Notes: a model not told the origin generated them from the sequence alone. A DNA stretch of 44,152 bases from Candidatus Zambryskiibacteriota bacterium (GCA_003233455.1 QILQ01000048.1:1-44152), one strand, 5' to 3'; counted from the stretch's first letter, positions 9,131 to 37,873 are shown. Numbers and translations: made by a program.

Positions 9131-10510
9131 ATGAATCCAAAAACAAAAAATTATCTAAGAGTGCCTCCAAATAATACCGAAGCGGAAAAAGCTTTGCTTG
9201 GTTCGGTAATGCTCCGACCGGAAGTGATGTATGAAATCACCGATTTAGTTTATGCTATTTCTTTTTATTCTGAAAAACATCGCTTGATATTTGAAACTAT
9301 GGTAGAGCTTTTTTCCAAACGCAACCCGACAGATTTGTTGACAGTTTCCGCTAGATTAAAAGAAAAAAATATTTTAGAGGAAATTGGTGGTAATAGTTAT
9401 TTGGGCGAATTGGTTAATTCGGTTCCATCGGCCTCAAACGCCTCTTATTACGCCGGCATAGTTCAAAAAAAACACATCGCCAGAAACTTAATTGGCGCGG
9501 CTGATTTTATTTCCGCATTGGGTTACGACGAAGCGGAAGAAATAGAAACTCTTTTAGATCAAGCTCAAAAAAAGATTTATGATGTGACCAATATATCAAG
9601 CATTCATAAATTTGTGGAACTAAAAGAAGAATTGGCGGAGGCTTGGGAAAGATTGGATAGACTTCAAAATTCCGGAGATGGTTTACGCGGAGTGCCAACG
9701 GGTTTTAAAGAACTTGATGAGAAACTTTCTGGTTTTCAAAAATCAGATTTGATAATTTTAGCGGCCAGACCTTCGGTGGGAAAAACCGCTTTAGCTTTGG
9801 ATATCGCTCGGCAGGCGGCTGTTTATCATAAAGTGCCGGTTGGCATCTTTTCTTTGGAAATGAGTTCCCAACAATTAGTAGACAGAATGCTCGCTTCCCA
9901 ATCAAATGTGGACGCCTGGAAACTTAGAACCGGCAAATTAAGCAAGGAAGATGATTTTGCCGCTATCCGCCAATCATTAGATGTTCTTTCCAAAGCTCCT
10001 ATTTTTATAGATGATCAACCGGGTAATAATATTTTAAAAATGCGTTCCGTTGCCAGAAGATTAAAAAAAGAAAAAGGTTTAGGTTTGATTATAGTGGATT
10101 ATCTCCAATTAATGATGACTAGTAAAAATTATGATTCTATGGTAAACCAAGTGACGGAAATTTCCCGCTCGCTGAAAAATTTGGCGAGAGAATTGGAAGT
10201 GCCAGTTTTGGCGCTTTCTCAACTTTCCCGAGCTATAGAGCAAAGAGGGGGTAAACCAAAACTCTCCGACTTGCGAGATTCCGGTTCTATTGAACAAGAT
10301 GCCGATTTGGTAATGTTTATTCATCGTGAAGATAAAGCTAAAAATACAGAGGAGTCGGAAAAAACAAATATTGCCGAGATTTTAATTGAAAAACATAGAA
10401 ACGGTGCCACTGGCAAAGTAGAATTATTCTTTAATGAAAAGAAAGCCACTTTTTTGCCTCTTGAAAAAGCTCAATTTAGCGGTGCTGAAAGTGAATTTAG
10501 AGAATTTTAA
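9131..10510 (+). CDS. dnaB: Replicative DNA helicase
   Basis: AARPSVGKT, FSLEM, IVDYLQL, LSQLSR, DLRDSGSIEQDAD, KHRNG; no intein. Confidence 0.98.
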   Translation: MNPKTKNYLRVPPNNTEAEKALLGSVMLRPEVMYEITDLVYAISFYSEKHRLIFETMVELFSKRNPTDLLTVSARLKEKNILEEIGGNSYLGELVNSVPSASNASYYAGIVQKKHIARNLIGAADFISALGYDEAEEIETLLDQAQKKIYDVTNISSIHKFVELKEELAEAWERLDRLQNSGDGLRGVPTGFKELDEKLSGFQKSDLIILAARPSVGKTALALDIARQAAVYHKVPVGIFSLEMSSQQLVDRMLASQSNVDAWKLRTGKLSKEDDFAAIRQSLDVLSKAPIFIDDQPGNNILKMRSVARRLKKEKGLGLIIVDYLQLMMTSKNYDSMVNQVTEISRSLKNLARELEVPVLALSQLSRAIEQRGGKPKLSDLRDSGSIEQDADLVMFIHREDKAKNTEESEKTNIAEILIEKHRNGATGKVELFFNEKKATFLPLEKAQFSGAESEFREF

Positions 10511-10517
10511 GATAAAC

Positions 10518-10560
10518 ATACTAATCTACAAATTATACAAATCAACAAATGGATACAAAT
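10518..10560 (+). repeat. Array of five TAC(A/T)AAT heptamers at the 5' end of the GxxExxY gene
   Basis: Units at 10519, 10527, 10536, 10544 (AACAAAT), 10554; array overlaps the ATG. Confidence 0.8.
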
Positions 10561-10929
10561 AAAAAAATAAATAAGAAAGTCATTTATCCAAAATTATCAT
10601 ATGTTATAACAGGCATATTGTTTGAAGCTCAAAATGAGCTCGGAAATTTTTCAAGAGAAAAGCAATATGGGGATTTAATAGAGACAAAATTAAAAGAAAA
10701 AGGTATTTTATACAAAAGAGAATTACCAATTTCTAATACAGGAAATATTCTTGATTTTGTAATTGAAGATAAAATTGTAATTGAGTTAAAAGCAGCAAAA
10801 TCTCTCACAAGAGAAAACTATAGACAAATACAAAATTATCTCCAAAGTACAGGTTATAAACTTGGTATGTTGGTTAATTTTAGAAGCAAATATTTAAAAC
10901 CAGAAAGAGTTATCAGAATTGATTCGTAG
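10549..10929 (+). CDS. GxxExxY family protein (PD-(D/E)XK nuclease superfamily)
   Basis: LSYVITG, ELGNFSREKQY, DFVIEDKIVIELKA, QIQNYL, GMLVNF. Confidence 0.9.
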   Translation: MDTNKKINKKVIYPKLSYVITGILFEAQNELGNFSREKQYGDLIETKLKEKGILYKRELPISNTGNILDFVIEDKIVIELKAAKSLTRENYRQIQNYLQSTGYKLGMLVNFRSKYLKPERVIRIDS

Positions 10930-10965
10930 TAATTTGTATTATTAGTAACATTTGTATATTAGTAT
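10922..10965 (-). repeat. Inverted array of five ATT(T/A/C)GTA heptamers at the 3' end of the GxxExxY gene
   Basis: Units at 10922, 10932, 10941, 10950, 10958; reverse complement of the 5' array; overlaps the stop codon. Confidence 0.8.
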
Positions 10966-10974
10966 ATTTATTTT

Positions 10975-11601
10975 ATGAACTCTATAGAAAAACTAATACA
11001 AATATTTTCCAATTTTCCGGGTATCGGACCGCGACAAGCTCGGCGATTTGTTTATTATTTGCTGACCAGAGCAAATGGAACTTTAGAAGAACTTTCTCAA
11101 AATATAAAAGATTTAAAAAATGATGTAATAATGTGTGCTGATTGTCAAAGATTTTTTGAGCACAAAAATAACAATTACAATGGTGCCCATTGTAAACATT
11201 GTAAAATATGTTCTGACAAAACTAGAGATGACTCTATTTTGATGTTAGTCCAAAGAGACGCAGACTTGGAATCAATAGAAAAAAACGGTGAATTTAAAGG
11301 TCTTTATTTTGTACTCGGAGGTTCGGTTCCGATATTAGAAAAAGAACCGGAAAAAAGAATTCGCATTAAAGAATTGAAAAAATTCCTTGAAAGAAAAGAA
11401 AATTTGAAAGAAATAATATTGGGAGTAAATTGGAATCCGGAAGGAGAAAATACCGGAGATTTTGTAGAAAAATTTATAAAACCGATTACAGAAAAAAATA
11501 AAATAAAAATTTCTCGTTTAGGTAAAGGACTTTCTATGGGTACCGAATTAGAGTATGCTGATAGTGAGACAATGAAAAATGCTTTGAAAAATAGGAGCTA
11601 A
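10975..11601 (+). CDS. recR: Recombination mediator RecR
   Basis: HhH motif FPGIGPRQARR, C4 zinc finger, Toprim domain (YFVLGG, NPEGE, GTELEYAD). Confidence 0.95.
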   Translation: MNSIEKLIQIFSNFPGIGPRQARRFVYYLLTRANGTLEELSQNIKDLKNDVIMCADCQRFFEHKNNNYNGAHCKHCKICSDKTRDDSILMLVQRDADLESIEKNGEFKGLYFVLGGSVPILEKEPEKRIRIKELKKFLERKENLKEIILGVNWNPEGENTGDFVEKFIKPITEKNKIKISRLGKGLSMGTELEYADSETMKNALKNRS

Positions 11602-11607
11602 AAAATT

Positions 11608-12189
11608 ATGAGCATCCAAAAATCTTATTTATATATTTTAATAACCGGCAGTATTATTGGTTTTGGAGCTTCTTTTTTGTTAATGATAGATACTTTAAAA
11701 CTTATAAAAAATCCGACCGCAATTCTTCCTTGCAATATTAATCCGTTTGTTAGCTGTGCTTCGGTTGCTGGTGCGTGGCAAAGCGAGATTTTTGGCTTCC
11801 CAAATCCCCTTTTAGGAATTGTATTTTTCAGTATGCTTTTAGTTATCGGTTTGATGCTTTATTTTAGAGGCAAAGTCGGTAGATTATTTTGGCTTTTGGT
11901 AAATCTAGGCACCCTAACCGCAATGTCTTTTGTTGTTTGGTTTTTCTACCAAAGTGTTTACAACATCGGCTCACTCTGTATCTACTGTATGGTAGTATGG
12001 ACAGTCACTTGGCCTATTTTTCTCTACACCACTATATGGAATTTCAAAGAAGAACATTTTAATGTTAAACACCGAGTGTTCAACATTTTAAATTTTGTTT
12101 CTCGTTATCATTTTCAAATTTTAATAGGATGGTATTTGATTATAGTTTTTCTAATATTATTTCATTTCCGCGATTTCTTTTTTGCTTAA
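11608..12189 (+). CDS. Vitamin K epoxide reductase (VKOR) family protein
   Basis: CNINPFVSC loop cysteines, FGFPNPLLG, LCIYC CxxC, TM helices. Confidence 0.92.
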   Translation: MSIQKSYLYILITGSIIGFGASFLLMIDTLKLIKNPTAILPCNINPFVSCASVAGAWQSEIFGFPNPLLGIVFFSMLLVIGLMLYFRGKVGRLFWLLVNLGTLTAMSFVVWFFYQSVYNIGSLCIYCMVVWTVTWPIFLYTTIWNFKEEHFNVKHRVFNILNFVSRYHFQILIGWYLIIVFLILFHFRDFFFA

Positions 12190-37801: not shown

Positions 37802-37873
37802 AACGCATAATATTATAACAAATTTATAGCAAAAAGCTATAAATTACATAAAGTCACCTATTTTTGATAACTT

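Follow-up and report, generated by a model that had tools for sequence, protein, structure and literature searches.

A GxxExxY nuclease gene between inverted heptamer arrays at a dnaB-recR junction: one copy of a compact, candidate mobile cassette of Patescibacteria

The dnaB-recR locus

The window analyzed here is a stretch of 44,152 nucleotides (nt), within which positions are counted, from the genome of a Candidatus Zambryskiibacteriota bacterium (G000; 736 kb, 33% GC, 52 contigs). Between dnaB and recR, the window contains a small intact gene for a nuclease of the GxxExxY (PDDEXK_3) family, which is enclosed by two arrays of heptamer units in opposite orientations. The segment from 10511 to 10972 is one copy of a compact cassette that is widespread in Patescibacteria. 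The features of the locus are as follows.

9131 to 10510, plus strand: dnaB, replicative helicase, upstream host gene (Pfam DnaB_C, 1.1e-101; DnaB, 2.9e-32)
10511 to 10972, plus strand: whole cassette, ~462 bp (±2 nt at each boundary), delimited by comparison with the empty junctions of relatives
10511 to 10518, plus strand: left terminus (GATAAACA, running into ...TAC), from the alignment of the genome's own copies
10519 to 10560, plus strand: left array, five forward T-R-C-N-A-A-T units with a pitch of 8 to 10 nt, from reading of the sequence (TACTAAT at 10519; TACAAAT at 10527, 10536, and 10554; variant AACAAAT at 10544)
10549 to 10929, plus strand: GxxExxY/PDDEXK_3 nuclease gene, 126 amino acids, intact (profile matches, conserved columns, fold model)
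10922 to 10964, minus strand: right array, five units at 10922, 10932, 10941, 10950, and 10958, from reading of the sequence
10965 to 10974, plus strand: right terminus, AT-rich (...TATTTATTTT), abutting the recR start (sequence, repeat search, own-copy alignment)
10508 to 10542, no strand: left arm of a long inverted repeat, partner of 10941 to 10975 (repeat search; paired in the minimum free energy and centroid folds)
10941 to 10975, no strand: right arm of the same repeat, partner of 10508 to 10542 (same basis)
10975 to 11601, plus strand: recR, downstream host gene, co-directional (Pfam RecR_HhH, Toprim_4, RecR_C)

The TAA stop codon of dnaB (10508 to 10510) is the outermost piece of the left arm. 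The last bases of the fourth forward unit form the start codon of the nuclease gene (ACAAATG), the fifth unit lies within codons 2 to 4, and the first right unit (ATTCGTA) overlaps the TAG stop codon. A preliminary description of this DNA had reported five forward units before or overlapping the start codon and five reverse units overlapping or following the stop codon, and both sets were confirmed in the sequence. The complementarity that it gave for the outer 16-mers (15 of 16 positions between 10518 to 10533 and 10950 to 10965) was also correct, and the repeat search extended it to the 35-nt arms, which are 83% complementary. The GC content of the cassette (24%, and 16.5% at third codon positions) is lower than that of dnaB, recR, and the window (33.5%).

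No promoter-like or terminator-like site was found in positions 10510 to 10560 or 10920 to 10975, and the cassette is therefore probably co-transcribed with its neighbors. A role of the arrays themselves as promoter or terminator was rejected, since no such site is predicted there and the TACGAAT units of relatives are unlike a -10 box. An Rfam scan of positions 10300 to 11200 gave no ribosomal RNA (rRNA) match and only two sub-threshold chance matches, both outside the arrays. Part of the right array (10947 to 10971) can also pair with a unit-like stretch in the first codons of recR (10984 to 11008; 25 nt, 72%). The recR start codon would lie within such a hairpin, which may be due to chance or may affect translation.

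The nuclease

The nuclease gene is the sole open reading frame (ORF) of the cassette. Its product matched PF13366 (PDDEXK_3; 6.4e-21, 75.3 bits, cut-off 22) and TIGR04256 (GxxExxY; 3.9e-20, 72.4 bits, cut-off 35) and corresponds to no known transposase class. The putative catalytic residues are E37, D69, E79, and K81; the first two and the last of these are invariant, and position 79 is occupied by E or D in 16 of 16 sequences. The window protein also shows no deviation at the 37 positions conserved in 90% or more of 78 relatives. The AlphaFold2 model (predicted local distance difference test score of 88) matched restriction endonuclease-like folds at a generic level only, including the BpuSI nuclease domain (Z 8.2), 3ijm (Z 7.8), Cas4 SSO0001 (Z 7.4), and Hjc (Z 6.5). 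A sequence profile search of the PDB identified no solved relative, with one chance match at an E value of 0.35. Profiles, catalytic residues, and predicted fold agree with the earlier assignment of GxxExxY to the PD-(D/E)XK fold. The active site looks intact and the enzyme looks functional.

A survey of PD-(D/E)XK proteins published in 2012 gives the function of PDDEXK_3 as "Unknown" (PMC3424549), and our literature search retrieved PDDEXK_3 only from that survey. The search revealed no described function for GxxExxY in the available text of the papers naming it, nothing for TIGR04256, and no published description of a nuclease gene laid out with inverted heptamer arrays.

Conservation of the layout among GxxExxY homologs

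With the window protein as the single query, 13 of 41 related genomes yielded a homolog. Searching genome contigs with a 16-sequence alignment afforded 198 relatives, and 80 loci were kept, of which 79 were delimited. The source records of the close homologs are all titled Patescibacteria or candidate phyla radiation, except for some evidently mislabeled bins.

The flanks of the homologs were checked for inverted short-unit arrays, as the preliminary description had advised, and such arrays were present. At least two forward units within 60 nt upstream combined with at least two reverse units within 60 nt downstream were detected at 49 of the 79 loci, versus none of 73 neighboring control ORFs. 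The best 20-nt flanking inverted match was at least 16 at 44 of the 79 loci versus one of the 73 controls. The 517 units have the consensus aT[A/g]C[G>T,A,C]AAT and are mostly spaced by 8 nt (113 spacings), 9 nt (116), 10 nt (64), or 11 nt (37). The fit to the gene is also general: the start ATG coincides with the last bases of a unit at 37 of the 79 loci, and a reverse unit begins within -6 to +10 nt of the stop codon at 61. The gene is co-directional with both neighbors at 60 loci. The gaps to the neighbors have medians of 36.5 and 40 nt, indicating that the arrays fill the spacers. Units of the TACGAAA type were found at 13 loci of one starred clade of the protein tree and at L102. Base composition was rejected as the source of the variable center base, the G fraction showing no correlation with the GC content of the flanks (rho ~0 for 68 loci) and the CpG observed/expected ratio of the window being 1.0.

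Distant homologs were also found on plasmids outside the phylum. The Bacteroides finegoldii homolog is flanked by an inverted repeat (30 nt, 90%) whose unit is a different 9-mer and the Treponema saccharophilum homolog by a 16-nt, 88% inverted repeat. The Gemmatirosa homolog has an array hairpin just downstream, and the flanks of the Persicobacter homolog show nothing clear. On a plasmid of Fusobacteria bacterium ZRK30 (L165), a distant GxxExxY gene lies between 22-nt repeats that are direct, not inverted.

Two further loci have an unusual context. At L067 (DAOWHH010000002.1), 31 nt from the 5' end of the ABC ATPase gene that follows occur a second time ahead of the GxxExxY ORF, generating a direct repeat that encloses the GxxExxY gene and its right arm. 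At L014 (G019:C53, ~1480 to 1900 in gene orientation), recG contains an in-frame, divergent GxxExxY domain, located just after helicase motif II (DEQH); the domain is preceded by ACGCAGA-type units, and 10 bases are masked at its 3' junction. Among viral contigs, the array pattern gave 81 matches, none of them encoding a relative of the window protein.

Pairing of the arms

The preliminary description had proposed that the flanks could pair into a stem looping out the whole gene, as RNA or single-stranded DNA. In the predicted fold of region 10500 to 10985 (486 nt), the outer arms are paired, with z scores of -3.91 as RNA and -3.28 as DNA, and none of 100 shuffles was as good. The eight gene-less pairs fetched from relatives all folded better than shuffles (z scores of -3.2 to -7.8); six further arrays fetched from relatives had no partner array in the stretch.

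The notion that the arms are kept for pairing was weakened by a comparison of the two arms of 13 elements (two near duplicates), which provided 53 unit pairs in an outer-anchored register. The six conserved unit positions agreed between the arms in 297 of 318 cases (93%), versus 14 of 53 (26%), about chance, for the center base. A stem would thus carry an uncompensated mismatch in most units. The center-base make-up was alike in the arms of one locus (0.67 versus 0.50 across loci, for 39 gene-bearing loci), and register-specific mirroring barely exceeded an order-shuffled null (0.67 versus 0.62; p ~0.03). This pattern fits units that would be read as sequence, with an unread center base, and not a structure kept by pairing. 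It may still be compatible with an imperfect hairpin as a physical intermediate.

These results bear on an alternative in which the arms would act as a nucleic acid stem, akin to the intervening sequence processed out of the dnaB-recR transcript that the preliminary description had offered as its second idea. For positions 9800 to 11800, a search listed no sequencing run and hence no RNA data set. The arrays would pair in the dnaB-cassette-recR transcript, or in single-stranded DNA, loop out the gene, and be cut by RNase III or a structure-specific nuclease, in the manner of an intervening sequence (IVS). The folds of the window region and of the eight pairs, the RNase III gene present in G000, and the prevailing co-directional orientation of the cassette gene are consistent with this scheme, as is the anatomy of the IVS of the Coxiella burnetii 23S rRNA, which encodes S23p. 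According to the available text of its description, the latter is 428 nt long, has a 28-bp terminal stem (one mismatch, one bulge), with heptamers repeated in tandem immediately before its small ORF, and is excised by RNase III (PMC4990558). In that text, the IVS shares with the cassette a size of ~430 to 460 nt, terminal inverted repeats around one small ORF, heptamers extending up to the start codon, a location inside a transcribed unit, and a status as selfish DNA, its origin being given as unknown (PMC4990558). It differs in its location in helix 45 of 23S rRNA rather than between the protein genes dnaB and recR, in its product, a four-helix-bundle protein rather than a nuclease-fold protein, and in its near-perfect stem, whereas most units of the cassette would mismatch at the center (PMC4990558). 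Against the stem scheme, mismatches at the center base are never compensated, and mirroring is close to its null. In addition, the three gene-less copies of G000 (described below) fold no better than shuffles (z scores of 0.09, -0.19, and -1.2), the Rfam scan gave no match, and any inverted array of one unit folds well irrespective of selection for pairing. We regard this alternative as unlikely; it could coexist with mobility at the DNA level.

Gene-less arrays

G000 has a single GxxExxY gene but further arrays, including the following.

G000:C9:37731-37846: gene-less pair in rpsS|rplV
G000:C9:40193-40306: gene-less pair in rplN|rplX
G000:C11:4553-4652 (minus strand): gene-less pair in rplF|rplR
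G000:C4:57748-57790 and 60221-60262: two solo arrays

The three copies in ribosomal protein operons are ~100 to 115 nt long and share the termini of the window element; the differences among them amount to one base and one 16-nt deletion. In rplF|rplR, the element's first three bases double as the rplF stop codon. The rplN|rplX spacer is at most 8 nt in 8 of 27 relatives, and other relatives carry solo arrays or a gene-less pair there. G000 also has an array pair of the TACGAAA type between histidine kinase and response regulator genes.

Some of the neighboring genes deserve mention. Beside its gene-less copy, rplV (G000:C9, ~37840 to 37850) has no in-frame ATG, GTG, or TTG before the conserved N terminus, the frame reading TAT ATT AAA ACG GCA versus ATG AAT GAA ATA ACA GCA in relatives. 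Either an ATT in the right end of the element serves as the start codon or the assembly contains an error. In one of the solo arrays, the last unit (ACAAATG) supplies the ATG of a gene for a SpoU/TrmH-like methylase. The other solo array lies between a RelE-type toxin-antitoxin pair and the start of fpg; ruvA|fpg is a recurrent site of the cassette in relatives.

Presence of the arrays follows presence of the gene. A triple-unit pattern was detected in 13 of 13 gene-bearing genomes (151 overlapping matches) versus 9 of the 28 genomes in which no gene was detected (13 matches, with a single match in each of eight of the nine genomes). The reversed pattern, used as a control, gave 6 matches in all genomes.

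A population of short repeats around a single gene recalls the REPIN-RAYT system, in which repetitive extragenic palindromic (REP) sequences form hairpin doublets (REPINs) and are associated with a tyrosine transposase gene (RAYT) (Bertels and Rainey 2011, PMC3116915). As far as the available text of that report goes, both systems comprise a single-copy gene flanked by short repeats that also occur without the gene as intergenic inverted doublets, and in both the repeat population co-occurs with the gene (here, in the proportions given above). The doublets are predicted to form hairpins, as are the eight pairs of relatives but not the three G000 copies. On the same basis, the systems differ in the enzyme (a PD-(D/E)XK nuclease, PF13366, here versus a Y1 HUH transposase), in the arm (three to five heptamers with an uncomplementary center base versus one palindromic REP), and in the copy numbers, which are small here, at most tens per genome (PMC3116915).

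The arrays might belong to another mobilizing or binding protein, or to a host process, the GxxExxY gene being a frequent cargo or hitchhiker in a palindromic repeat. Gene-less pairs and solo arrays are indeed common, and G019 has many arrays with no cognate gene found. Short units are also present next to the sole gene of G000 for a PF05635 protein, the four-helix-bundle "23S rRNA IVS protein" (G000:C22:201-569, minus strand): four ATTTTCAAT-like units, different in sequence from those of the cassette, lie just upstream of its start, and downstream there is a GC-rich terminator-like hairpin and no reverse array. However, the GxxExxY ORF is fitted to the arrays with single-base precision, the start codon lying inside a unit at nearly half of the loci, and the variant of the unit follows the protein clade. 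The co-occurrence of gene and arrays and the absence of any other conserved gene accompanying the cassette across 80 clusters of neighbors also argue against this possibility, which we consider quite improbable.

Insertion sites

Synteny of dnaB and recR is kept in 29 of 30 loci of relatives across the order, the 30th ending at a contig edge. The empty sites that the preliminary description had suggested looking for exist: in 11 of the 30 loci, five of them in the same genus, the spacer is at most 20 nt, with four 2-nt spacers, one 3-nt spacer, and one 4-nt overlap. Empty junctions consist of the stop codon, 2 to 3 nt, and ATG (L021, L026, L033, L043, and L045), and the cassette occupies that spacer. 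The junction contains a GxxExxY gene in 5 of the 30 loci, a gene-less array pair of ~105 nt in 2 (L028 and L034), and a solo right-type array directly before the recR ATG in 3. L039 has a 29-nt spacer with just a weak unit-like stretch. Unrelated hairpin inserts (three GC-rich, one other) are present in 4 loci and larger other inserts in 3. A search of metagenome contigs for polymorphic empty sites with an exact 31-nt word from the end of dnaB gave no match. Comparison of the window copy and the three gene-less copies with empty junctions revealed no target site duplication, the AT-rich ends leaving 1 to 5 nt ambiguous. Together with the sole ORF belonging to PF13366, this bears out the earlier remark that neither a transposase nor a target duplication is visible.

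The neighbors of the 79 loci fall into 80 protein clusters, of which 58 are singletons. Recurrent sites are located upstream of an ABC ATPase gene (13 loci), after dnaB (9 loci, with recR downstream in 6), and in ruvA|fpg (4 loci). Genomes with an occupied dnaB-recR site belong to several genera and families (G000, G006, G007, G023, and G029). In a protein tree built by a quick method, which left the backbone unresolved, the dnaB|recR copies form two separate starred clades and scattered rows. The nearest relatives of the window protein are L050 (71%), followed by L052, L055, and L057, which occupy a different junction and have the same left terminus as the window element. This terminus is common to the gene-less copies of G000 and the closest homolog-bearing elements, and the motif AGATAAACAT is found there in L050, L052, L055, L057, and L067. 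The tree and the shared termini appear to favor repeated use of dnaB|recR over a single ancient insertion.

The same stop-start junctions are used in relatives by a second family of inserts, GC-rich and palindromic (CCTCACCCC ... GGAGAGGGG type). Its members were found in dnaB|recR (L022, L023, L025, L027, L047, and L049), in rplN|rplX (L137, L145, L146, and L150), and at L173 and L174. The family is also nested in the loops of two heptamer-array pairs.

The gene could also be a vertically inherited host module, namely, a housekeeping or regulatory nuclease of the dnaB-recR operon, with the arrays as operators and repeated loss accounting for the patchy distribution. Occupation of the site in several genera and families, the good conservation of the protein, and the weak tree backbone would be expected from such a module. 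Nevertheless, the family occurs at dozens of unrelated junctions, same-genus genomes have empty spacers of 2 to 3 nt, and near-identical gene-less copies lie in ribosomal protein operons of G000. The termini of the window element group with those of copies at another site, and its GC content is below that of its neighbors. This explanation is in our opinion very improbable.

The last alternative, that AT-rich, low-complexity sequence gave rise to the arrays by chance, has a negligible probability and is refuted by the controls. The word TACWAAT is not enriched over the window as a whole (28 found versus 23.9 expected), but 9 of the 28 matches are clustered in the 485 nt from 10519 to 11003. 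Among the 668 ORFs of G000 of at least 100 amino acids, the nuclease gene is the sole case with at least four forward units upstream and at least four reverse units downstream. Arrays of this kind are thus absent around other genes of this AT-rich genome; the preliminary description would have counted equal arrays being common in shuffled AT-rich DNA as a refutation. The best 20-nt flanking inverted match of the nuclease gene (18/20) ranks second among these ORFs; the sole ORF outranking it is a peptide deformylase gene (G000:C50:1071-1604) with a 19/20 flanking inverted repeat of different sequence. The layout was likewise absent from the control ORFs, and the reversed pattern was nearly so from the genomes.

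Interpretation and mechanism

We consider it fairly probable that the cassette is a selfish, probably mobile element whose nuclease recognizes its own terminal arrays, by a mechanism that we infer. The architecture of the cassette, its generality in the family, the empty and gene-less sites, the many junctions, the co-occurrence of arrays and gene, and the intact active site are direct observations. The homolog flanks, the empty sites, the lack of comparable arrays around other genes of G000, the gene-less copies, and the co-occurrence support the idea, put forward in the preliminary description, of a minimal selfish element consisting of a nuclease and its own arrays. Under this interpretation, the arrays would be terminal repeats composed of sites to which a protein, most probably the encoded nuclease, binds sequence-specifically, and would resemble the multiple transposase sites at transposon ends or the REP sequences around a RAYT gene. 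The nuclease would cut the ends of the cassette or the target junctions, and host repair or replication would then spread the cassette, with gene-less array pairs as likely non-autonomous derivatives. The cassette would owe its survival to an exact fit between the stop codon of one gene and the start codon of the next in a common transcript.

Transposon ends with several transposase-binding sites are found in Tn7 and Mu. Insertion sequences and their miniature inverted-repeat derivatives have, like the cassette, inverted ends made of repeated oriented sites and internally deleted gene-less copies that keep both ends. The cassette differs from them in having no DDE, HUH, serine, or tyrosine recombinase and no visible target site duplication, its sole protein being a 126-residue nuclease. 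The PD-(D/E)XK protein of Tn7, TnsA, works with a DDE partner. Free-standing homing endonuclease genes, as in the "intronless homing" of phages, also consist of a small nuclease gene inserted exactly at the boundary of conserved essential genes; relatives have empty sites, and the same junction is reused. However, we know of no such genes that have inverted arrays or leave gene-less array pairs, and homing does not explain spread to unrelated junctions within one genome. The cassette is akin to selfish elements of the REPIN-RAYT and IVS types, and its enzyme family is unprecedented.

More broadly, and only tentatively, GxxExxY proteins could be the mobilizing enzymes of an unrecognized class of prokaryotic mobile elements. 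A nuclease of ~125 residues would recognize the heptamers at the ends and drive spread without a classical transposase into the stop-start junctions of operons, that of gene-less array pairs included. This might also explain the origin of ORF-bearing rRNA IVSs and of a class of intergenic palindromic repeats.

Several points weigh against mobility driven by the nuclease. Binding or cleavage of the arrays by the enzyme is a step that we infer from sequence. To our knowledge, PD-(D/E)XK nucleases hydrolyze DNA and do not join strands. A complete transposition chemistry is therefore missing, and host repair or replication would have to finish any move. No target site duplication is visible, the AT-rich ends blurring the boundaries. 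At 30 of the 79 loci, the arrays were not detected on both sides within the distances used; most of these loci have a one-sided array, variant units, or arrays placed further off. Clear flanking inverted repeats were found in only two of the five distant plasmid homologs outside the phylum. G019 has the most array matches (32), yet its sole GxxExxY copy is the divergent one embedded in recG, and nine of the 28 genomes without a detected gene, as judged with one protein query, still have an array. Arrays can thus outlive their cognate gene or spread without it, unless the gene was missed. Furthermore, the related genomes are not independent samples. The quickly built tree, with its weak backbone, does not prove that dnaB|recR was entered repeatedly rather than once in the distant past with later losses. 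Finally, residues 28 and 29 vary with the unit type (K28/K29 for AAA-type units versus H28/N29 for AAT-type units; 13/14 versus 0/52), but this link comes from one clade and a single evolutionary event and is therefore a lead rather than evidence.

This analysis gives the large GxxExxY/PDDEXK_3 family a concrete, testable role, that of a nuclease associated with inverted heptamer arrays of its own and with gene-less derivatives. The pair formed by the protein and its unit could serve as a small sequence-specific DNA-binding module. If the proposed role is correct, it would add a new enzyme class to those of mobile DNA and connect REPIN-like repeats with the origin of rRNA IVSs, which has long lacked an explanation. 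It would also illustrate how selfish DNA can persist in genomes of 0.7 Mb, through an exact fit between the stop and start codons of essential operons.

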